From contig OZ024745.1 of assembly GCA_964016885.1 (NCBI GenBank), positions 19,964,001 to 20,028,000 of the forward strand: 64,000 nucleotides of DNA, in the 5' to 3' direction. The translations under genes were made by a program, and so were the position numbers. Shown piece after piece: positions 18,826 through 64,000 of this stretch. The notes under the pieces were generated by a model. The model saw only the letters and a list, made by a program, of their open reading frames with translations. It did not search any database and was not told the origin of the DNA. This DNA is from Eledone cirrhosa. Lineage: Eukaryota. Position 1 is the stretch's first letter. Each line of letters starts with the position of its first letter.

Positions 18826-19916
18826 ATATCAATAATCTTTACTAACAATTACTCATTGAATCTCCATATGGTTTCTGGTGTTTATACCTCGTATTTAGTT
18901 GTTTTCAAAGCAAACCAACTGGTTTTACTTCATTTATTTAGGAATTGTGACATTTTAGAAATGTGAACACTACTTTTATACAATTTGAAAATTAATTCTA
19001 AAATATTGTATTTGCTTTTGCTTATTTAGATATCATTTCCTGCTAAATTTTCTTCAATCAGAGGTTTCCGCCGAGGTTGACTTTGCCTTTCATCCTTACG
19101 GGGGTCGATAAAATAAAGTACCAGTAATGCACTGGGTAATTGCTGGCCTTGTGCCTAAAGTAGAAACAATTATTACTCTTAACAGAGTAATAATAACCCA
19201 AGAATTTTTATTTAATACATGAATGTGGTGTTTGGAATACAACTTAACAAAGGGTTCTTAAATAAATCTGTTGTGTACTTTTTGTTTCAAAACTATTATT
19301 TACAGGTAAACATAAATTCCACACAATTTAAAATTATTTAAATTTTGTTTGAATATCATATAAAATGAATAATTAAGCAGTATCGAACTAGGCATAAAAT
19401 GGAATTATAATATAAAAGAATTCTACACACTTAATTGGATTTTTACTTGAACTTGAACACATAAAATATAAAACAGCTGCTGCAATGAGGAAAGTGAAAT
19501 AGACTGAATTGGTGGAATATCTGTTTAGAGAAAACTACATGACACATATGTGCATACATATGTATACATGCATGTACACACAAACACTCTCACTAAACTA
19601 CAAGATGAAATATATCCATATGCACATGCACACACACGCACATATGCACACACACACACACACACACATACAAATACACACACATACAAACACACACAAA
19701 CACACACAAACAAACATACACATACACACATAAATACACAGGCACACATAAACATGCACATGAATGCACACATAAATAAACATACATGAATACACATCAT
19801 CTTCATCATTGTCATTTTAATGCCTGCTTTCTCTGCTAGCAAGGGTTGGATGGGTCTACATAGACTAAGTCAGTACTGAAGTGGTGGCTACTGATCTCCC
19901 ACAGAAGCCAGGGATG

Positions 19917-22900
19917 CATAATTACACACACATAACTACACACACACAACCACACACACACACATAACTACACTCACACATAACTACACACACACAACCA
20001 CACACACACACATAACTACACTTACACATAACTACACACACACATAACTACACTTACACATAACTACACACACACATAACTACACTCACACATAACTACA
20101 CTCACACATAACTACACTCACACATAACTACACTCACACATAACTACACTCACACATAACTACACTCACACATAACTACACTCACACATAACTACACTCA
20201 CACATAACTACTCCCACATAACTACACTCACACATAACTACACTCACACATAACTACACTCACACATAACTACACTTACACATAACTACACTCACACATA
20301 ACTACACTCACACATAACTACACTTACACATAACTACACTTACACATAACTACACCTACACATAACTTCACCTACACATAACTACACCTACACATAACTT
20401 CACCTACACATAACTACACTCACACATAACTACACTCACACATAACTACACTCACACATAACTACACCTACACATAACTACACCTACACATAACTACACC
20501 TACACATAACTACACCTACACATAACTTCACCTACACATAACTTCACTTACACATAACTTCACTTACACATAACTTCACCTACACATAACTACACGTACA
20601 CATAACTACACCTACACATAACTTCACCTACACATAACTACACCTACACATAACTACACCTACACATAACTTCACCTACACATAACTACACCTACACATA
20701 ACTACACCTACACATAACTACACCTACACATAACTACACCTACACATAACTACACCTACACATAACTTCACCTACACATAACTTCACCTACACATAACTT
20801 CACCTACACATAACTACACTCACACATAACTTCACCTACACATAACTTCACCTACACATAACTACACTTACACATAACTACACCTACACATAACTACACC
20901 TACACATAACTACACCTACACATAACTTCACCTACACATAACTACACTCACACATAACTTCACCTACACATAACTTCACCTACACATAACTACACCTACA
21001 CATAACTACACCTACACATAACTTCACCTACACATAACTACACCTACACATAACTACACCTACACATAACTACACCTACACATAACTTCACCTACACATA
21101 ACTTCACCTACACATAACTTCACCTACACATAACTACACTCACACATAACTTCACCTACACATAACTTCACCTACACATAACTACACTTACACATAACTA
21201 CACCTACACATAACTACACCTACACATAATTACACCTACACATAACTACACCTACACATAACTTCACCTACACATAACTACACTCACACATAACTACACT
21301 CACACATAACTTCACCTACACATAACTTCACCTACACATAACTTCACCTACACATAACTACACCTACACATAACTACACCTACACATAACTTCACCTACA
21401 CATAACTACACCTACACATAACTACACCTACACATAACTTCACCTACACATAACTTCACCTACACATAACTACACTCACACATAACTACACTCACACATA
21501 ACTACACCTACACATAACTTCACCTACACATAACTTCACCTACACATAACTACACTCACACATAACTTCACCTACACATAACTTCACCTACACATAACTA
21601 CACTTACACATAACTACACCTACACATAACTACACCTACACATAACTACACCTACACATAACTTCACCTACACATAACTACACTCACACATAACTACACT
21701 CACACATAACTTCACCTACACATAACTTCACCTACACATAACTTCACCTACACATAACTACACCTACACATAACTACACCTACACATAACTACACCTACA
21801 CATAACTTCACCTACACATAACTTCACCTACACATAACTACACTCACACATAACTACACCTACACATAACTTCACCTACACATAACTTCACCTACACATA
21901 ACTACACTCACACATAACTACACCTACACATAACTTCACCTACACATAACTTCACCTACACATAACTACACCTACACATAACTTCACCTACACATAACTA
22001 CACCTACACATAACTTCACCTACACATAACTACACCTACACATAACTACACCTACACATAACTTCACCTACACATAACTTCACCTACACATAACTACACC
22101 TACACATAACTTCACCTACACATAACTACACCTACACATAACTACACTCACACATAACTACACTCACACATAACTACACTCACACATAACTACACTTACA
22201 CATAACTACACCTACACATAACTACACCTACACATAACTTCACCTACACATAACTACACTTACACATAACTTCACCTACACATAACTACACCTACACATA
22301 ACTACACCTACACATAACTACACCTACACATAACTACACCTACACATAACTTCACCTACACATAACTACACTTACACATAACTACACCTACACATAACTG
22401 CACCTACACATAACTTCACCTACACATAACTACACCTACACATAACTTCACCTACACATAACTACACCTACACATAACTTCACCTACACATAACTACACC
22501 TACACATAACTTCACCTACACATAACTACACCTACACATAACTTCACCTACACATAACTTCACCTACACATAACTACACCTACACATAACTTCACCTACA
22601 CATAACTACACCTACACATAACTTCACCTACACATAACTACACCTACACATAACTACACCTACACATAACTTCACCTACACATAACTACACCTACACATA
22701 ACTTCACCTACACATAACTACACCTACACATAACTACACCTACACATAACTACACCTACACATAACTTCACCTACACATAACTACACCTACACATAACTT
22801 CACCTACACATAACTACACCTACACATAACTACACCTACACATAACTACACCTACACATAACTTCACCTACACATAACTACACCTACACATAACTTCACC

Positions 22901-23685
22901 TACACATAACTACACCTACACATAACTACACCTACACATAACTACACCTACACATAACTTCACCTACACATAACTACACCTACACATAACTTCACCTACA
23001 CATAACTACACCTACACATAACTACACCTACACATAACTACACCTACACATAACTACACCTACACATAACTACACCTACACATAACTACACCTACACATA
23101 ACTACACCTACACATAACTTCACCTACACATAACTACACCTACACATAACTTCACCTACACATAACTACACTTACACATAACTACACCTACACATAACTA
23201 CACTCACACATAACTACACTTACACATAACTACACCTACACATAACTACACTCACACATAACTACACTTACACATAACTACACCTACACATAACTACACC
23301 TACACATAACTACACCTACACATAACTACACCTACACATAACTACACCTACACATAACTTCACCTACACATAACTTCACCTACACATAACTTCACCTACA
23401 CATAACTTCACCTACACATAACTACACTCACACATAACTACACTTACACATAACTACACCTACACATAACTACACCTACACATAACTACACCTACACATA
23501 ACTACACCTACACATAACTACACCTACACATAACTACACCTACACATAACTTCACCTACACATAACTTCACCTACACATAACTTCACCTACACATAACTA
23601 CACTCACACATAACTACACTCACACATAACTACACCTACACATAACTACACTCACACATAACTACACCTACACATAACTACACCC
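19917..23685. repeat. 16-bp minisatellite (ACTACACCTACACATA)n, about 235 copies
   Basis: Continuous 16-bp period with variant units ACTAC/ACTTC and ACCTA/ACTCA/ACTTA. Confidence 0.97.
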
Positions 23686-24184
23686 AATAATGATTCATTA
23701 ATCATAATTGCACTAACCTTACCTGTAAATAATATAATAGATAAGATAAATTTGAAATTTGAAGATTTAAAAAAAAAAAAAATAAAATTCCATTCTGCCT
23801 AATCCAATCTCGCAGAAAACACATTGAAAACTTATTTCAATTGGCCATGCACTAGCTTTTCTTTTTTGATGCTGGCATTCTTGGTATTGCTATTTTGAAC
23901 CTTTACCCCCCCCCCCCCCCCCCACACACACACACATTTTATGTAGATTAGATGAATTCAGAGGGATATCTCCTGACAGGTTTTTAACTTTCTACCAACA
24001 GTTATAATTTAAAAAGTATATAAATATATATATATTTCGTTGACAAATATATCAATATGCCCAGACATGTAGATATATTGCCGTTGGTATGACAGTGTGG
24101 TTTTAGCTCAATGTAGGATAACTAGTATACTACAGAGCCGTTATAGTTATAGGAATAACCAAAGAGTGCTTAGAAATACATTGT

Positions 24185-42405: not shown

Positions 42406-45063
42406 TCATCATCATCATCATCATCATCGTTTAACGTCCGTGTTCCACGCTTGCATGGGTTTGGACGGGAGTTTTCCCACTTGAGGCAAGAGTGATCGTC
42501 TTGCTCGCATAGGACTGTCTGGCGGGTTTTCTACAGCTGGATGCCCTTCCTAACACCAACCACATTTACAGTGTGGGGCTGGGAGGTTTTTACCGTGTTG
42601 CCTACACGGTCACATTACAGCGTGGACTGTGTATTTTTTTGTCGTGACACCTACACGATCTCATTTGTTTCGGCCTGGATGTTGTGGCACCAACGTAACT
42701 TTATATTGAAAGGGGCGGTGTGGATGGGGTGGGGGTGGTGGGACGGGGGTGTATTTTGTTAGAGATGCCTACTGGCTGTAGTGGGTTTTACTTTGTATTT
42801 AGGTAAGGCGGGTCTTCTCTATTACTGAGTACCGCCAAAGGTCTCGGTCCAGTGACATTGTCTTGGAGAGGTGTAAGTGTGTGAGGTCGGAATTTATCAG
42901 CTCGTCCCAGGTTTTTCTGGGTCAGCCTACTCCGTGGCTACCGTCTATCTTTATTGCCCTGCACTTTGTTATACAGCTGTCGTCTTCCATGCGCATCACG
43001 TGACCATACCAATGTAGCCTTCTCTCGAGTAAACAACATCTGATCCCTCTTATTTCTAATTTTTTCCTTAGTTCGTTTATGCTTTGCCGTTCACGTATAT
43101 TACTATTACACATCCAGCGGAGCATGCAAGCTTCGTTCCTCTCTAGTTTGCGTATATCCTCTGCACACAATGCCCAGGTCTCACTGCCATGCAACATTGC
43201 TGTCGTATGCAGGCATCATACAACCTGCCTTTCATTTTTAGGGAGAACCCTTTAGCGGCTAATAGTGGTATAAGCTCTCTGAACTTTTTCCATCCAGTTC
43301 TGACTCTAACTACTGTACTTTCAGAGCACCCTCCCCCACTGCTGATTTTGTCACCTAGGTAACGGAAGCTGTCCACTATTTCTATAGAACCCTCTGCGCA
43401 ATTGAAAGAGCTAGTATTTTGTGGGCACTTGCTGCTACTTATTGCACCAGAGCACCGGCCACATGTAAAATCTATGTTCTTAGTTAGCTTACCTGTGATC
43501 CCACTACATCTTTTATGTACCCATACTTTGCATTTGGGACATAAAATGGAGTTTCTACCTACGCCTTTCCTACACACTGAGCATGGCCATTTCCGGGAAG
43601 GGACCGGCGCCCTATTTTCTTTCTTACAAACTAGAACTTTAGTCTTAGCCAGGTTAATTTTAAGGCTTTTTGATTCTAGGCCGTGCTTCCATGTTTGGAA
43701 TTTCTTCTCTAGCTCGGCCATTGATTCAGCTATGAGCGTTAGATCATCTGCGTATAGGAGTTCTCATGGGCAGCTGGTCTTGAACTCCACTGTTATAGCC
43801 TGAAGGGCAATAATAAATAGGAGGGGGCTAAGGACGGAGCCCTGATGAACACCAACTTTTACACTAAACTCTTCACTATATTCGTTGTTAATTCTAACCT
43901 TGCTGACTGTTTCTTTATACATGGCTTGTATAGCTCTCACAAGCCATTCGTCAACACCTAGTTTTCTAAGAGACCACCAGATAATGGAACGGGGGACTCT
44001 GTCGAAGGCTTTCTCCAAGTCAACAAAAGCTAAGTATAGGGGTTTACTTTTAGCTAGGTACTTCTCCTGTAGTTGTCGTACAATGAAAAGAGCGTCTGTG
44101 GTACTTTTGCCTGACACAAAACCGAACTGCATTTCATCTAGATCAATTCTCTCCCTCATTAGTTGCGCTATTACTTTTTCCGTGACCTTCATGACCTGGT
44201 CGATTAATTTAATGCCTCTATAGTTACTCCTATCTAGGGCATCTCCTTTACCCTTGTAACAGTTAATGATGATGCTGCTACGCCAGTCCTTCGGAACAAC
44301 CCCATTCTGTATGACTTGGTTTACTATTCGGGTGACCATGGTGTGTCCCACCGTTCCAGAGGCTTTCAGCATCTCAGCAACTATTTCCGAAGGCCCAGCC
44401 GCCTTACCCATCTTCATATCTTTGATTGCCTTACTTATTATACTACCTTCGACTAACACTGCCAGTCCCTCTATTGGGTCGATGTGGGGGAGACTGTCTT
44501 TCTCCCATTTATTCTCCTCATTTAGAAGCCTTTCGTAGTGACACTTCCAAGCTACCTACTTATCAGCGTCAGTGATGGCAAGTACGCCATCATCATTAAG
44601 TACACACTTCTCCCCGACAATATCACGGTTTTCCTTGACACATTGCCTAGCAATCCTGAACACCTCACGTTTTTGGTCCTCACGTTGTAGAACATGCTTG
44701 AACTTTCTTTCCTCTGCTTCCTTTCTTGCGAAGTACACTTGTCTCCTAGCTTCCCTCCTGGCCACTTGATAGTCTTCTCTACTTCCCCCATCCCGCCATA
44801 CTTTCCAAGCTTGCTTTTTAGCCTTAATTGACTCCTCCACCTTACTGTTCCACCACCATGTTACTCTCCTCCTACCTACAGGCCTGCTCCAGCCACAGAC
44901 TTCGTCTGCCGCCGTCAGCAGGTTTGCTTTCAGGAATTCCCACTGTTCCTCTATATTATACGACTCTAATTGCTCTTCTTTACTGTCGAAAGCATCAAGT
45001 AACATGCTTTGAAATTTATTTCTGGCTGTGGGGTCCTTTAGCTTCCATATTTTTCTCCTGAGG
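42406..45063 (-). mobile_element. RTE-clade LINE family 1, 5' truncated, ORF disrupted
   Basis: ORF pieces 44556-45005, 43764-44459, 43143-43721 and 42922-43197 give FVDLEKAFDRVP, GVHQGSVLSP, YADD and WYGHVMRM; (GAT)n tail at the left end. Confidence 0.95.
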
Positions 45064-45334: not shown

Positions 45335-46208
45335 GGGTTAGTTTTATTTATATGGTCTAACAGGGTTAGTTTCATCTGTATGATCTAACAAGATTTAGTT
45401 TTATTTGTATGATCTAACAGGGTTAGTTTCATCTGTATGGTTTAACAGGGTTAGTTTTATTTGTATGGTCTAACAGGATTGAGTTAGTTTTATTTGTATA
45501 TTCTAACAAATTATTATCTTTAATTATCCATTAGTAAGATGAAATAAAATGTCATATATATAAATAAGATTTTCAATGCTAATTCAAAGAGATACATGAT
45601 TCATCATCACTGTTTAATGTTCATTTTCCCACACTAGCATGGGTTAGACAAGTTGTCCCATTTGAGACAAGTCAGGTCAGGTGATGGTGTCTTTCTCATA
45701 CAGAATTGTTTCTGGCTTGGTTTCTCCAGTTGGATGCCTTTCCTAATACCAACCACATTTACAGTGTGGACTGGGTGCCTTTTATTGTGGCACTGAAATG
45801 GACCACTTTACAGTGTAGACTGGGTGTAAGGACGTGGGTGAAGAGTATGGTGTTAGGATTACACTATTTTGAAACTTCTAAAATAGAACTACATCTGTTC
45901 TGTGGAGTATATATAGTAATGCTGTGAAACACTTTGCCATCTTTTCTAGTAAAAGAGAAGTTTTGTGGAAATAATTTTGATGATTATGGATGAGGAATTG
46001 ATTTGATGGAGTATTTAGTTTGTAACTATGACAAGGTGATGATAAGAGATATGTGATGAAATGATGAGGGAGAGAAGTGGTGACATTATGAGAAAGAGAG
46101 ATGGTGAGATGTGATGAGATGAGAGAGGTAGTGAGACAATAAGTGAGAAAAATAAAGGTGGAAATATTTTGTTGATATATTTAAGTTCAATGAAGTTATA
46201 AGAGTGGG

Positions 46209-46275
<67 letters not shown>

Positions 46276-46448
46276 AACGTTTGTATTTGTAAAGCCAAAA
46301 CAATGCAGGTATGGATATAGAATAAAAATGCAAATTTTTATTCTATGTCCATACCTACATTGTTTTGGCTTTACAAATACAAACGTTTATACCTCATTAC
46401 ACAATGCTTCAAGTGAACTATAACTTCCTATATATATATATATATATA

Positions 46449-47653
46449 GGTGTTGAGGAATGGCTTGTAGGACAGTGCAAACTTTGTACAGAGGTACTCT
46501 CAGTAAAGTCAGGGTAGGAATGGAGTTTAGTGAGGAATTCCAGATACAAGTAGGAGTACATCAGGGTTCGGTCCTCAGCCCGCTCTTGTTCATTATAGTC
46601 CTCCAAGCCATAATAGAGGAGTTTAAGACCGGCTGTCCATGGGAACTTCTCTATGCTGACGATCTGGCTCTTATAGCAGAATCAGTAGAGGAGCTAGAGA
46701 ATAAATTCCGGCTATGGAAACAGCAGTTGGAAGCAAGAGGACTGAGAGTAAATCTAGCTAAGACAAAAGTGTTGATGAGTAGAAAAGAGGACAAAACCCT
46801 GATTCCGTTAGGGAAATGGCCATGTTCGATATGCAGAAAAGGAACTGGCATAAATTCTATAAAATGCACACAATGCAGGTCCTGGGTACACAAGAGATGT
46901 AGCGGGATAGCAGGCAAACTAAGAGGTAGGGAGAAATATGTATGCAGTAGATGTACAGGGAAATTAGACAGTAGAAGTCGCACTGATAGACACATTTTTC
47001 AAATGCGAGAGGGCGCTATAGAAGTGGTGGATAGCTTCCGGTACCTAGGAGATCAGATTAGCATGGGAGGAGGGTGTTCCGAGGCCATAGTATCTAGAAT
47101 AAGGACGGGTTGGAAGAAGTTTAGGGAGCTGCTTCCTCTGTTGACGAAGAAGGGTTTCTCCCTGCGTACGAAAGGCCGGTTGTATGATGCCTGTGTGAGG
47201 AGCGTGATGCTGCATGGTAGTGAGACATGGGCAGCAACCGCAGAGGATATGCGACGGCTGGAGAGAAATGAGGCAAGCATGCTCCGTTGGATGTGCAGTG
47301 TAAATGTGCGTGAACGACCCAGCATAAATGTGTTGAGAGAGAAACTGTGTCTGAGAGGGATAGAATGTAGTGTACGGGAGAGGAGACTGAGGTGGTATGG
47401 ACATGTGATGCGCATGGAGGATGACCGATGGGTGAAGAAGTGCCAGGAAATGCCAGTTGAAGGAAGACGTGGTAGAGGTAGACCACGAAAAACATGGGCG
47501 GAGGTGGTGAGAACAGACCTCAGATCATTGAAGCTCACGGCGGAGATGACGAGGGACCGTGACGAGTGGAGAGATGCTGTGCTGAATAAGACCCGTCCCA
47601 CCCTTGCAAGCAGGGAGAAGCGGACGTAAAATGATGATGATGATGAATGATGA

Positions 47654-47655
<2 letters not shown>
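46449..47655 (+). mobile_element. RTE-clade LINE family 2, 5' truncated, with open RT C-terminal ORF (46460-47629)
   Basis: GVHQGSVLSP, LLYADD, FRYLG, RLRWYGHVMRM and GRPRKTW; stop codon followed by (TGA)n; (TA)n on both sides. Confidence 0.95.
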
Positions 47656-47685
<30 letters not shown>

Positions 47686-47690
<5 letters not shown>

Positions 47691-48339
47691 GAAGAGAGAA
47701 GAAACATTTAGATATAATTAGTAATAAAATGTATCATACCTAAACTGCTCCTAAATTCCTCGACTACGTAGTTTCGTGGCATAAACAAAAACAATATATC
47801 ATAAAGATATAGAGTCCCTGCGAGGTCTGCCGACTTATCAAGAGGATACCTCATTTTACTAGTCTCAAGAACGCGTCTACACGACGTGAGAAAGAATCCC
47901 AAAAGGCGGAGGGGGAGATAGTCACGCGATATAACGGTCGAGAAACAGAGCTAAGCCTCTTATAACCACGAAGAAAATACCACGGAGGCGGAGGGGGTAT
48001 TCATATCGAGGCCGCAGAAGAGGTGGTGAAGAAGGCTAGAAGTATGAGTAATGGAAGCTTTCCAGTTGTCCCCACACTTCAAAGATTGCTCGACCAGAGG
48101 GAGTTATTAACAATATATTTAGAAACACACAGATACATGCGGACACACACATATATACATGAATGCATCCGCACCCAACTGTGAGTTAAGGGTGCCAACT
48201 TCACCGATGTTGCTCAATGAATGACCGGGACAGACCAATTCAGTTGAACCAGACTGAACCAGTATCAGAGTTAAAAATACATTATGAAGAGAGAAGAAAC
48301 ATTTAGATATAATTAGTAATAAAATGTATCATACCTAAA
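47686..48339 (-). mobile_element. Retrozyme / Penelope-like element: 595-bp monomer plus perfect 59-bp terminal direct repeat
   Basis: 47686-47744 is identical to 48281-48339; (TA)n on both sides; internal hammerhead. Confidence 0.8.
47757..47846 (-). ncRNA. Type I hammerhead ribozyme, U3-A8 core variant
   Basis: Minus strand: TCCTC-TTGATAA-GTCGGCA...TGCCAC-GAAAC-TACGTA-GTC^GAGGA; stem III ACTACGTAGT is palindromic. Confidence 0.75.
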
Positions 48340-49273
48340 TATATATATATATATATATATATATAGCCCACTCTTATTATAACTTCATTGAACTTAAATA
48401 TTTCAACAAAATATTTCCAGCTTTATTTTTCTCACTTATTGTCTCACTACCTCTCTCTTTTATCATCTCTCTCATCTCACCATCTCTCTTTCTTATAATG
48501 TCACCACTTCTCTCTCTCATCATTTCATCACATATTATATTTATACTCAGAGTTTTCCTAGAGTGCTACTTAATATCTGTGACTAATCCCAGTTTAAAAA
48601 AAAAACTGCGATAATATTGCTTATGCTGAACTCCATATTTTTGTTGAGTTTTTACGGAATGTTTTGACTGTTGTTTCTTGTAAACAGCTTTTTCGTCTCA
48701 TCCCACCATCACTAGCGTGTGTCCACGTGTTGTTTTGTTATTTCAATTCTACACGCTGTTGCTTGCCTGCTTTTAATTCCCCTCCAGCATTTTAGCAGTG
48801 AAAATTTGGTTAATGTTTTGAGCACTACTGAAGATTTCGATACCAACCGTGACTAACCCCACTGAAAAGTTTTGCGAAATAGTCGTTTAAGACTATATTA
48901 TGCATTTGTAGTTTTCCCCAAATTGACGGTTAAGTATTTCTTCTTGATTTTATTTTGAGTTAAGATTGTACTGCTTTTCCCCCAACTTACACAATTGTAC
49001 TGCTTTTCCCCCAACTTACACAAAGTCTGAGGATAAAGTTTTTCTTCTTGATTTGTTTTAAATTAGGATTGTATTACTTTTCCCTCATCTTACATTAAAA
49101 ATGTTTTCATCTTGATGTTATAGTCACTTATATGTCTGAATTATTGTTGGCATTTTGCTTACATTAATTTCTCTATTTTCATTTATTTTCATTTATATAT
49201 TTTCATTTATATATTTTCATTTATATATATATATAACATATATATATATAACATATATATATAACATATACTC

Positions 49274-49319
<46 letters not shown>

Positions 49320-49358
49320 ATATATAAGAACAAAAGATGGTTAAAAGAGTTCCATGTA

Positions 49359-49425
49359 TTTTATTATGCCCATTTCAAAAACAAATATCATCATGCAATA
49401 ATATTTGTGTTTTCATCAGATAAAA
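49359..49425 (-). ncRNA. Type I hammerhead ribozyme, left arm
   Basis: Minus strand: TTTTAT-CTGATGA-stem II-GAAAT-GGGC-ATA^ATAAAA. Confidence 0.78.
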
Positions 49426-49885
49426 CATGAAGACATGATATGAAGGTTAAAAAATACTTGTGGATAGTTCAGTTTTAAATCAACATATGAGAAGTAGTTT
49501 TAGATTGATGTGTGATATTGGGAAAAATATTTTATTTACATTATTTACATTATTTTTCTCTTCGTTAATTTTCAAATTCTTTTAATTTATACATTATCTT
49601 CCAACGGTTTTCAACCTCTATGTAAAACAATATATCTTTCTCAGTTATAAAAGCTATCTCTCTCTCTCTATCACCCATCTCTCCTCCTATCTCATCCTTC
49701 CTCATTATACTCCTCCCTCTCCACTTTTTACTCTCATCTCCTCCTCTTTTTCATCCTTTCCACCCCCCCCTCTAAATAAAATATTTTTCCCAATATCACA
49801 CATCAATCTAAAACTACTTCTCATATGTTGATTTAAAACTGAACTATCCACACGTGTTTTTTAACCTTCATATCATGTCTTCATG

Positions 49886-49952
49886 TTTTATCTGATGAAA
49901 ACACAAATATTATTGCATGATGATATTTGTTTTTGAAATGCGCATAATAAAA
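49886..49952 (+). ncRNA. Type I hammerhead ribozyme, right arm
   Basis: TTTTAT-CTGATGA-AAACACAAATATT...GATATTTGTTTTT-GAAAT-GCGC-ATA^ATAAAA; stem III ATGCGCAT is palindromic. Confidence 0.85.
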
Positions 49953-50985
49953 TACATGGAACTCTTTTAACCACCTTTTGTTCTTATATATTATGTATAC
50001 TCCAGTCCTACATACTGTAGAGTGCTTATTATCTGATATCTGCATTGCTTTATTGTACTACAATAAAACTCACCTCCTACATATATATATATATATCTAT
50101 ATATATATATATATATATATATATAGATGTGCGTGGTGTTGTGGTAAGGGTGTTGAACATACGATCACTATCAATATTTAGAATATCATCTCATCCTCAC
50201 ATAGAAACACCACTGCTTTCTCTGTTGTTTAGTAATCTTCAAGGATCACTGTTAGGTTCTTGAGTATGTTATTCTCTGACAATTTGTTGACCTTGTATGA
50301 GTAGCTGCCTCTGCAGATGTCTAAATCATGTTGATGTATGATCCGCTGGTAATTGGATCTCTTACTTCAAGAAATTCTTCAAGTTAAGTGATTCTGATTG
50401 ACAAGTACCTGTAGTTCACTGGCAGGTGTAACAGCCCTGACAAGTACCTGTAGTTCACTGGCAGGTGTAACAGCCCATCACCCTCTCTCTTTGTACTACA
50501 TATTCTACAAGAAGTTGGTCACCAAAATCATTGGCCCTTACATTTTTTTCCAAATTTCCTTTCAACCATTGTTTCTTCTTCAATTTGTTGGTCCATGTCA
50601 CCTTTTCACTGTTTGGGGATAGTAAGGATTGGTTGCTCAACCTTGCTGACTTACCGCTCTTCCTTCCCTTTCTTCCTCTCCATCTTCCCCTATCTCTCCA
50701 TTTCCCCACTCTTGCCCCCCCCCCCCTCTATCTCCCCCCCCCCACACTAATGACTGGTAATCTCTATATATGTACATATTCACTAGTTTCATAGTTTCAA
50801 CTTTACAAGAAATAAGAAACAATGATAATCTGAACAAATAATTGTATTAATATTGATGAGAAGATTGAAAGGAAACCAAATAGTCTTTAGCATTATAACT
50901 CAGGTAATGACTGCTTAGCCTTTACTTATACTTATATTTCAACCTCTTTAAAGTCAGTAGCCATTTTGTATTAAAGAAGAAAGAA

Positions 50986-59097: not shown

Positions 59098-59555
59098 TAA
59101 TCTGATCACCTAGGTACCGGAAGCTATCAACCACTTCTATAGCACCCACCTGCATTTGAAAAATGTGTCTATCAATGCAGCTTCTACTGTCAAATTTCCC
59201 TGTACATCTACTGCATCCGCATTTCTCCATACCTCTTAGTTTGCCTGCTATCCCACTATATCTCTTGTGTACCCAAGATCTGGATTGTGTACATTTTATG
59301 GAATTTATGCCAGTTCCTTTCCTACATATTGAACATGGCCATTTCCCTGACAGAATCAGTTTTGTCCTCTTTTCTACTCATCAATACTTTTGTCTTAGCT
59401 AGGTTCACTCTCAGTCCTTTTGATTCCAACTGCTGTTTCCATAGCCAGAATTTATTCTCTAGCTCTTCTACTGATTCTGCTACAAGAACCAGATTGTCAG
59501 CATAGAGAAGTTCCCATGGACAGCCAGTCTTAAACTCCTCTGTTATGGCTTGGAG

Positions 59556-59559
<4 letters not shown>
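59098..59559 (-). mobile_element. Internal fragment of RTE family 2
   Basis: VLQAITEEFKTGCPWELLYADN...FRYLGDQI; homologous to about 46598-47060, frameshifted. Confidence 0.9.
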
Positions 59560-59601
<42 letters not shown>

Positions 59602-61885: not shown

Positions 61886-61918
61886 ATTTATTTAATTAAT
61901 TATTTAATTAATTATGAT

Positions 61919-64000
61919 TGGGAGAAAGACAGTCTCCCCCACATCGACCCAATAGAGGGACCAGCAGTGTTAGTCCAGGGTAGTACAATAAGCAAGGCAA
62001 TCAAAGATATGAAGACGGGTAAGGCGGCTGGTCCTTCGGAAATAGTTGCTGAGATGCTGAAGGCATCTGGTTCGGTGGGACACACCATGGTCACCCGGAT
62101 AGTTAACCAAGTCGTACAGAATGGGGTTGTTCCGAAGGACTGGCGTAGCAGCATCATCGTTAACTGCTATAAGGGAAAAGGAGATGCCCTAGATAGGAGT
62201 AACTATAGAGGCATTAAATTAATCGACCAGGTCATGAAGGTCACGGAAAAAGTAATAGCGCAACTAATCAGAGAGAGAATTGATCTAGATGAAATGCAGT
62301 TCGGATTTGTGTCAGGCAAAAGTACCACAGACGCTCTTTTCATTGTACGACAACTACAGGAGAAGTACCTAGCTAAAAGTAAACCCCTATACTTAGCTTT
62401 CGTCGACTTGGAGAAAGCCTTCGACAGAGTCCCCCGTTCCATTATCTGGTGGTCTCTTAGAAAACTAGGTGTTGACGAATGGCTTGTGAGAGCTATACAA
62501 GCCATGTATAAAGAAACAGTCAGTAAGGTTAGAATTAACAACGAATATAGTGAAGAGTTTAGCGTAAAAGTTGGTGTCCATCAGGGCTCTGTTCTTAGCC
62601 CCCTACTATTTATTATTGCCCTTCAGGCTATAACAGAGGAGTTCAAGACCGGCTGCCCATGGGAACTCCTATACGCAGATGATCTAACGCTCATAGCTGA
62701 ATCAATGACCGAACTAGAGAAGAAATTCCAAACATGGAAGCACGGCCTAGAATCAAAAGGCCTTAAAATTAACCTGGCTAAGACAAAAGTTCTAGTTTGT
62801 AGGAAAGAAAATATGGCGGCAGTCCCATCTGGGAAATGGCCATGCTCAGTGTGTAGGAAAGGCGTAGGTAGAAACTCCATTTTATGTCCCAAATGCAAAG
62901 TATGGGTGCATAAAAGATGTAGTGGGATCACAGGTAAGCTAACTAAGAACATAGATTTTACATGTGGCCGGTGCTCTGGTGCAATAAGTAGCAGCAAGTG
63001 CCCACAAAATACTAGCTCCTTCAACTGCGCAGAGGGTTCTATAGAAATAGTGGACAGCTTCCGTTACCTGGGTGACAAAATCAGCAGTGGGGGAGGGTGC
63101 TCTGAAAGTACAGTAGCTAGAGTCAGAACTGGATGGAAAAAGTTCAGAGAGCTTATACCACTATTAGCCGCTAGAGGGTTCTCCCTAAAAATGAAAGGCA
63201 GGTTATACGATGCCTGCATACGAACAGCAATGCTGCATGGCAGTGAGACCTGGGCATTGTGTGCAGAGGATATACGCAGACTAGAGAGGAACGAAGCTTG
63301 CATGCTCCGCTGGATGTGCAATAGTAATATACGTGAACGGCAAAGCATAAACGAACTAAGGAAAAAATTAGAAATAAGAGGGATCAGATGTTGTTTACTC
63401 GAGAGAAGGCTACGTTGGTACGGTCACGTGATGCGCATGAAAGACGACAGCTGTATAACAAAGTGCAGGGCAATAAAGATAGACGGTAGCCACGGAGTAG
63501 GCAGACCCAGAAAAACATGGGACGAGCTGATAAATTCCGACCTCACACGCTTACACCTCTCCAAGACAATGTCACTGGACCGAGACCTTTGGCGGTACTC
63601 AGTAATAGAGAAGACCCGCCTTACCTAAATACAAAGTAAAAACCTACTACAGTCAGTAGGCATCTCTATCAAAACACCCCCCCGTCCCACCACCTCCACC
63701 CCATCCACACCGCCCCTTTCAATGTACAGTTATGTTGGTCCCACAACATCCATGCCGAAACAAATGAGATCGTGTAGGTGTCACGACAAAAATCACACAG
63801 TCCACGCTGTAAATGTGGCCGTGTAGGCAACACGGTAAAAACCTCCCAGCCCCACACTGTAAATGTGGTTGGTGTTAGGAAGGGCATCCAGCTGTAGAAA
63901 ACCCGCCAGACAGTCCACGCTGTAATGTGGCCGTGTAGGCAACATGGTAAAAACCTCCCAGCCCCACACTGCAAATGTGGTTGGTGTTAGGAAGGGCATC
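61919..64000 (+). mobile_element. RTE-clade LINE family 1, 5' truncated, with open RT ORF (61967-63628); 3'UTR runs off the window
   Basis: 553-aa ORF with all RT motifs; near-identical to 42406-44507 in opposite orientation. Confidence 0.96.

Follow-up and report, generated by a model that had tools for sequence, protein, structure and literature searches.

The window analyzed here, a 64,000-nt stretch of the Eledone cirrhosa genome, contains a short insertion that begins and ends with the same sequence and carries a hammerhead-like core, which raises the question of what kind of element it is, and how it was copied into the genome. A preliminary description, made from the DNA letters alone, had proposed a 595-nt monomer with a perfect 59-nt terminal redundancy and a variant hammerhead, and the structure it described was confirmed from the sequence. 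The insert is located on the minus strand, is 654 bp long, and consists of one 595-nt unit and a further 59 nt, with the terminal 59 nt identical to each other at a spacing of 595 and with (TA)n on both flanks (Table 1). In the numbering used for the unit, +1 is the base directly following the predicted cleavage site; the insert extends 76 nt beyond this site, as proposed earlier, or up to 80 nt counting the TA-like bases common to the target. The 3′ end of the window copy is located at site A, a pyrimidine-rich motif leading into (TA)n, and the copy reads through site B, at which other members of the family end. Copies that are 100% identical were found elsewhere in the genome, which supports the view that the window insertion is a recent retro-insertion, in agreement with the recent event suggested before. 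The unit also contains two GC-box-like motifs, the windows of which are 87–92% identical between old and young subfamilies, and which, judged by their sequence, could possibly serve as an internal promoter.

Table 1. Coordinates of the insertion, its hammerhead, its end sites and its target (window positions).
Feature	Position	Strand	Remark or basis
Whole insertion	47686..48339	-	595-nt unit + 59 nt; 5′ end +18 after cleavage site; 3′ end site A
Type I hammerhead	47757..47846	-	sequence, fold, coordinates, conservation
Hammerhead stem I, 5′ strand	47846-47842	-	
Hammerhead stem I, 3′ strand	47761-47757	-	
Hammerhead core UUGAUAA (U3-A8)	47841-47835	-	
Hammerhead stem II, long	47834-47776	-	
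GAAAC / palindromic stem III / GUC	47775-47762	-	C17 = 47762
Predicted cleavage	between 47762 and 47761	-	
Site A, 3′ end of window copy (putative RT start, ~+76 to +85)	47682..47699	-	fixed 3′ end
Predicted hairpin directly upstream of site A	47700..47752	-	folds, young and old subfamilies
Site B (~+240 to +255), second fixed 3′ end of the family	48107..48124	-	
Predicted long hairpin directly upstream of site B	48125..48187	-	folds
Two conserved GC-box-like motifs	47997-47987 and 47916-47906 (span 47906..47997)	-	alignment
59-nt redundancy, first copy	48281..48339	-	
59-nt redundancy, second copy	47744-47686	-	
(TA)n target, left flank	47656..47685	.	directly after (ATG)n tail of LINE fragment
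(TA)n target, right flank	48340..48365	.	

Several other structures were observed in the window. Inverted arms of 95–98% identity (46049-46209 and 48366-48535) surround a (TA)n core, into which three elements have inserted in nested fashion, namely a hairpin element, the 3′ fragment of a LINE, and the retrozyme; these arms may themselves be a head-to-head insertion. The hairpin element (46276-46387) is a 54-bp near-perfect, MITE-like hairpin in (TA)n, with weak matches to several microRNA models, far under their thresholds. The LINE 3′ fragment (46457-47655) contains a frame of 390 codons encoding RT and a PHD-like finger, ends in (ATG)n, and has relatives near 43200, 59100-59560, and 61900-63800. 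A 227-nt inverted repeat of 98% identity with a 234-nt spacer is located at 49312-49999, and about 4 kb of short-period tandem repeat, nearly G-free on the plus strand (GC skew about -1.0), at about 19800-23800.

The variant core UUGAUAA was confirmed on the minus strand together with GAAAC, the GUC site, a 5-bp stem I, and a palindromic stem III. The motif has the features of a type I hammerhead, which are a Watson-Crick 3-8 pair, G10.1-C11.1, stems I to III, and a UH cleavage triplet. A search of the 3.0-Gb genome with a hammerhead pattern, in which positions 3, 7, and 8 were left free, returned 6,422 matches versus 13 for the reversed control; the pattern fixes the core flanks, and this count refers to the 595-nt family only. 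The U3-A8 pair was present in 6,389 of the 6,422 cores and C3-G8 in none, while 18 cores were without U3, none of them with G8, and 15 had U3 but not A8. Hence, the earlier expectations that the variant would be fixed in other copies and would be missed by a standard CUGANGA search were both borne out. The core boxes were 97–100% identical between old and young subfamilies, while the whole units were 73% identical, which together with the low number of control matches argues that the hammerhead is not a chance match. Across an alignment of 28 hammerheads, pairing was kept in 93% of the paired cells, and the stem III pairs and G10.1-C11.1 are invariant; no covariation above that in shuffles was detected in the stems of these 28 rows, which are conserved by invariance. 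A relaxed stem III pattern gave 48 matches, and all 30 that were opened belonged to the 595-nt family. The Rfam search of the window reported no hammerhead at the insert, and the 111-nt hammerhead region alone folded no better than shuffles (z -0.69). In the predicted fold, the monomeric stem III is closed by a loop of 2 nt, and it could form an 8-bp self-duplex; a dimer arrangement via stem III has been described for hammerheads (PMC4209133).

The U3-A8 core is not new. It is a published natural covariation, and such pairs had been shown earlier to be active in vitro (Perreault et al. 2011, PMC3088659). It was also described in PLE hammerheads of Schistosoma (Cervera and de la Pena 2014, PMC4209133), with about 1,300 U3-A8 hammerheads in Schistosoma mansoni, found via the Cercyon PLE (PMC4209133). 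The hammerhead of the unit has the same compensatory 3-8 change, 5-bp stem I, and palindromic stem III as the variants described in these papers (PMC3088659, PMC4209133), while it differs from them in its location inside a tandem retrozyme unit, in its roughly 60-nt stem II, and in being fixed in subfamilies with a difference of up to 29%.

A DNA search of the same genome with the unit, in which 40 of 1,511 candidates were scored, found copies at 99–100% identity, many of them tandem. The subfamilies range from 100% down to 71% identity, with units of 581–607 nt, and a type I hammerhead is present in every unit of the tandem repeat. The longest frame in the circularized unit has 80 codons, which indicates no protein coding. 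The ends of the insertions run into (TA)n, and neither TG..CA ends nor a tRNA gene was found. The identity of an LTR retrozyme or TRIM, as defined by fixed TG..CA ends, a 4–5-bp target duplication, and a type III hammerhead, was rejected on account of the absence of TG..CA ends, which the preliminary description had named as a sign of such an element; the target duplication is unreadable inside (TA)n. An autonomous PLE was also rejected, because the unit has no ORF for RT and GIY-YIG endonuclease. The element is thus a young, high-copy, non-coding non-LTR retrozyme with a known core variant. A literature search for this family in octopus found no description, while the supplements of PMC7229834, PMC4209133, and bioRxiv 10.64898/2026.07.22.740005 may list cephalopod elements; the accessible main text of an O. 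vulgaris repeat paper (PMC13282606) mentions no hammerhead, ribozyme, or retrozyme. No RNA holder of the unit was listed; the unit was found in four sequencing runs of unknown kind, in two of them as a single wrap-around contig of 620–621 nt at a depth of about 8, which is uninformative on an RNA circle because the neighboring LINE had a similar depth.

The anatomy of the insertions was compared in a main sample consisting of all insertions behind the first 100 pattern matches on C1 (first 57 Mb), which gave 54 insertions after neighbors were merged and one local duplicate was dropped, and in three extra samples of 23, 34, and 26 insertions, picked by similarity or pattern. The main sample contained 26 single arms, 27 head-to-head insertions, and one unclear case. 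The 3′ end of the single arms was located at site A (about +80) in 12 of 26, at site B (about +245) in 13, and elsewhere in one. The four samples together contained 79 head-to-head insertions, of which 70 were A+B, one B+B, none A+A, and eight unclassifiable; thus 70 of 71 classifiable insertions combined the two sites (p = 6e-20 versus independent choice). The 5′ ends, on the other hand, were scattered around the unit. Hence, the circularly permuted start points that had been anticipated were not found: the 3′, or priming, ends occupy two constant sites, and the scatter is confined to the 5′ stops. Hairpins predicted directly 5′ of both A and B are kept in old and young subfamilies. As in PLE-mobilized elements, the insertions have fixed internal 3′ ends, a one-sided tail, 5′ truncation, an inverted 5′ arm, and a microsatellite target.

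An arm longer than one unit was present in 32 of the 54 insertions, and longer than two units in five, while the longest arms reached 2,907 nt, up to 4.9 units. Arm lengths above 320 nt fit an exponential distribution (n = 58, mean excess 505, KS p = 0.60), with no steps at multiples of 595, and no sharp 5′ wall in the 595-nt unit was detected among the arm 5′ ends. There was a broad excess of 5′ ends at +340 to +420 (27 of 85 arm ends versus 10 at +421 to +511), for which stalling of the RT, microhomology with TA, or a diffuse start of transcription are candidate readings.

To compare haplotypes, 95 insertions at 93% identity or more were used. Passes within an insertion differed at 0.35% of site pairs (0.37% between arms), versus 2.16% between insertions. 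At 45 common polymorphic sites the disagreement within insertions was 33 of 5,602 pairs, and between arms 12 of 2,390, while between insertions it was 23%. Thirty-one variants were private to one insertion among the 95 sampled out of thousands, and each was present in every pass, up to eight passes over both arms. All 61 within-insertion differences at sites with at least three passes were confined to a single pass. The crossings of the cleavage site had the standard length in 203 of 211 cases. When folded as a circle, the unit had an energy of -176.8 kcal/mol, compared with -138.8 (sd 6.9) for 30 shuffles (z -5.5), and old units folded as circles gave z from -3.4 to -8.9.

A pile-up of 5′ ends at the cleavage site was considered as proof of in vivo cutting and was set aside. 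The number of TA-joined 5′ ends per anchor copy was 0.78 in the cleavage window and 1.02, 0.86, 0.30, and 0.36 in four control windows, two of which were thus equally rich. Locally, 29 of 33 listed loci had their 5′ end at +1 to +18 versus four at -12 to -1 (scored by eye, one duplicate dropped), and 74 ends were counted at the cleavage window versus 36 in the window directly upstream.

A-to-G changes made up 10 of the 31 private all-pass variants versus 16 of 201 single-pass differences (p = 5e-4), and A/G was found at 25 of 38 common transition sites (p = 0.005), while the strand test of A-to-G versus T-to-C gave p = 0.09. Three A-to-G private variants were clustered in hairpin A of one insertion (L097), and the excess was seen in L097, L099, and other unit copies. 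RNA editing is extensive in coleoid cephalopods, and the A-to-G excess would fit editing of the template; it is a weak lead.

A candidate for the enzyme was found through GIY-YIG matches, which led to a PLE family (the L143 family) having RT together with GIY-YIG at the C-terminus. Its linker, as read from the translation, is of the CX2-5CxxC type, which has been assigned to Neptune and Nematis (PMC8557442). The best named relative of a PLE protein of the E. cirrhosa genome is from Octopus bimaculoides (78%). The candidate partner PLE is young, with 113 RT matches at 98–100%, and it has 6,893 hammerhead cores, of which the first 100 listed all read UUGAAAA; this core, also U3-A8, was present in 42 of 42 examined. 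Searches for CUGANGA only thus miss about 13,000 hammerhead cores in the E. cirrhosa genome. The 3′ ends of the partner are located at +82 and +150 and run into (TA)n. The A+B arrangement was present in 11 of 11 long inverted loci showing both outer hammerheads, and in 19 of 20 short head-to-head loci (L239-L258), which were chosen for shortness. The motifs at the ends of the partner are also similar to those of the unit (at A, TTTCTTTATA in the old subfamily; at B, TTTCTAA(A)TATA).

Among the first 100 partner cores 22 of 28 head-to-head pairs were very short. Of the 41 arms in the 20 short loci, 14 end at precisely 72 nt upstream of the cleavage site and 34 within -56 to -74, a 5′ wall that lies about 30 nt after a TATA-like box. 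In our reading, each short pair was made by two RTs that reached the 5′ end of the same linear transcript, its hammerhead uncut, and the wall marks in the genome where this transcript begins. Outside a TG/TA repeat, neither blastn nor a profile detected DNA similarity of the unit to the partner or to any of 46 PLE loci. In this small survey of about five PLE families from the 46 loci, there was no similarity at the level of alignment, and the unit and the partner have in common two short motifs at their ends, the spacing of +80/+82, and the U3-A8 core. At one locus (L138) a copy of the unit lies beside a PLE, which is not a homologous parent. At least four more PLE families were observed (L145, L146-L149, L150/L155, and L153), some loci of which have canonical CUGANGA hammerhead candidates.

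We consider it fairly probable that the window copy is a 5′-truncated non-LTR retrozyme, which was likely circularized as RNA and likely copied into (TA)n by the protein of the partner PLE. Tandem genomic copies would be transcribed, and the U3-A8 hammerhead, probably dimeric via its palindromic stem III, would release monomers to be ligated into a circle; by analogy to known retrozymes, the monomeric circle would be unable to form the stem III dimer and would be stable. The PLE protein, probably as a dimer, would cut (TA)n, and RT would start at site A on one DNA end and at site B on the other. Each RT would run backwards around the unit for a random distance, giving single or head-to-head arms of one haplotype. 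The window copy would correspond to a start at A, one crossing of the cleavage site, and a stop 17 nt short of the second crossing. Circles from animal retrozymes have been described (PMC7229834), PLEs have been named as likely movers of animal non-LTR retrozymes (PMC7229834; bioRxiv 10.64898/2026.07.22.740005), and circles have been proposed as templates for more-than-unit copying (PMC4209133). The A+B rule is better explained by priming at the two DNA ends than by self-priming on an antisense template, which has been proposed for head-to-head forms (PMC3846280); two internal RT start sites, extension of both strands, and a predicted dimer have been reported (PMC11167929). Of the earlier proposal of reverse transcription 1.1 times around a circle, the circular template stands as the best reading, while the 1.1 turns and the 59-nt redundancy proved accidental, with arms of up to 2,907 nt elsewhere.

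Some observations count against parts of this proposal. The pairing of the unit with this PLE would rest on architecture and two short motifs. The partner was copied through an uncleaved hammerhead, and an uncleaved linear template is plausible for the unit too; in vitro, hammerhead cleavage was dispensable for PLE insertion (PMC11167929). The clustering of 5′ ends at +340 to +420 is not predicted by a plain memoryless model. A more far-reaching reading, which we find rather doubtful, is that a circular RNA parasite, with no sequence alignable to its host PLE, mimics the two RT start motifs and the U3-A8 hammerhead of that PLE, and that a single PLE dimer starts synthesis at both broken DNA ends on the same circle, from which the two arms are rolled off. 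If true, the retrozyme circle-to-DNA step would have its first proof from a genome, with the partner named, and the heritable evolution of the parasite may draw on A-to-I editing of its circle in a cephalopod.

Alternatively, the unit could be a non-autonomous PLE parasite that was copied from a linear, uncleaved tandem read-through template, or by seamless homologous template switching on one unit, with the hammerhead kept for some other step or for rare cutting, which we regard as unlikely. In the partner PLE, copying from linear RNA across an uncut hammerhead is visible, and the seamless junctions are equally compatible with such a template. In vitro, too, uncleaved RNA served as the main substrate (PMC11167929); cleavage by minimal hammerheads is poor (PMC4209133), and eight of nine Xenopus retrozyme dimers were not cleaved (bioRxiv 10.64898/2026.07.22.740005). 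On the other hand, the sharp 5′ wall expected of a linear transcript is present in the partner but not in the 595-nt unit, which was counted for the circle. Linear copying alone only shortens arrays, whereas new variants have spread to every pass, and one subfamily after another has built its arrays up again, to 4.9 units per arm. The single-pass nature of the 61 differences also speaks against a linear template; 20 of 200 differences were recurrent, which is, by a rough estimate, close to chance.

It is very improbable that monomers or short copies were inserted and the arrays then grew in place by unequal crossing-over or slippage, in a minisatellite-like manner. Such growth has been proposed for vertebrate retrozymes (bioRxiv 10.64898/2026.07.22.740005), and one local duplication was seen here (L056/L059), but passes of the same arm differ at 158 of 46,202 pairs (0.34%, by subtraction), compared with 0.37% for opposite arms, which indicates passes of equal age. 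Arm lengths without steps at multiples of 595, and the dispersal of the arrays, each with its own A or B end, are also at odds with in-place growth, which we consider already largely excluded. The insert is also very improbable as the pseudo-LTR or 3′ tail of a longer, unfound autonomous PLE, which would suit its PLE-like insertion style (PMC8557442), but upstream of the hammerhead there is the same 595-nt unit again, and in the unbiased sample of 54 insertions 32 have an arm exceeding one unit in length. Beyond the arms lie (TA)n, unique flank, or an inverted arm, and no continuation common to them was seen. The longest frame is 80 codons, and subfamilies down to 71% identity also have units of about 590 nt; this explanation is excluded for the bulk of the family, and a rare ORF-bearing parent is excludable only by a full genome-wide alignment. 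The circle and the Penelope pseudo-LTR, which had been posed as alternatives, are thus not exclusive: the insertion is PLE-style, but what was inserted is a complete ORF-less unit and not the pseudo-LTR of a longer element.

The probable circular retrozyme can be compared with known systems. It resembles the animal non-LTR retrozymes described by Cervera and de la Pena 2020 (PMC7229834) and Li, Clavereau and Pollet 2026 (bioRxiv 10.64898/2026.07.22.740005) in being a tandem repeat that codes for no protein and has a single type I hammerhead in each unit, as well as in its GC content of 42%, its occurrence as monomers to multimers, its strong circular fold, and the co-occurrence of PLEs. It differs from them in length (595 nt versus about 300 nt typical, with 51–972 reported), in its U3-A8 core and long stem II, and in that its insertions could be resolved as dispersed and PLE-style, with 3′ ends fixed at two sites and inverted arms of the A+B kind. 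The unit has no homology to the pLTR of its proposed partner, unlike 24 of 57 Xenopus families, which match known elements (bioRxiv 10.64898/2026.07.22.740005).

The insertions are also similar to those of endonuclease-positive PLEs of the Neptune/Nematis type (Craig et al. 2021, PMC8557442; Frangieh et al. 2024, PMC11167929) in their 5′ truncation, and in having the hammerhead near the 3′ end. They share as well the partial tandems, the inverted 5′ copy, the tail at one end only, here the A-B interval, and the preference for (TA)n, all of which have been described for PLEs (PMC8557442). In contrast to these PLEs, the unit has neither an ORF nor a sharp 5′ wall, and its tail is about 165 nt long, compared with the 30–40 nt described for PLEs and 68 nt in the partner PLE. 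Non-autonomous Chlamys PLEs, such as MRC1 (PMC8557442), are like the unit in being non-autonomous partners of a PLE and in their head-to-tail multicopy insertions; unlike the unit, they generally resemble the autonomous partner at the 3′ end, and most Chlamys are described as without canonical hammerheads (PMC8557442).

Whether and how PLEs mobilize animal retrozymes from circles has been stated as open (PMC7229834; bioRxiv 10.64898/2026.07.22.740005), as has the formation of tandem and inverted PLE structures (PMC8557442). The genome of E. cirrhosa holds together a young retrozyme and a young candidate partner PLE with the same end rule, which gives unusually clean genomic evidence on the mechanism, a testable partner, and a good test case for the spread of elements. 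The contrast between the wall in the partner and none in the unit allows a direct experimental comparison of linear and circular RNA.
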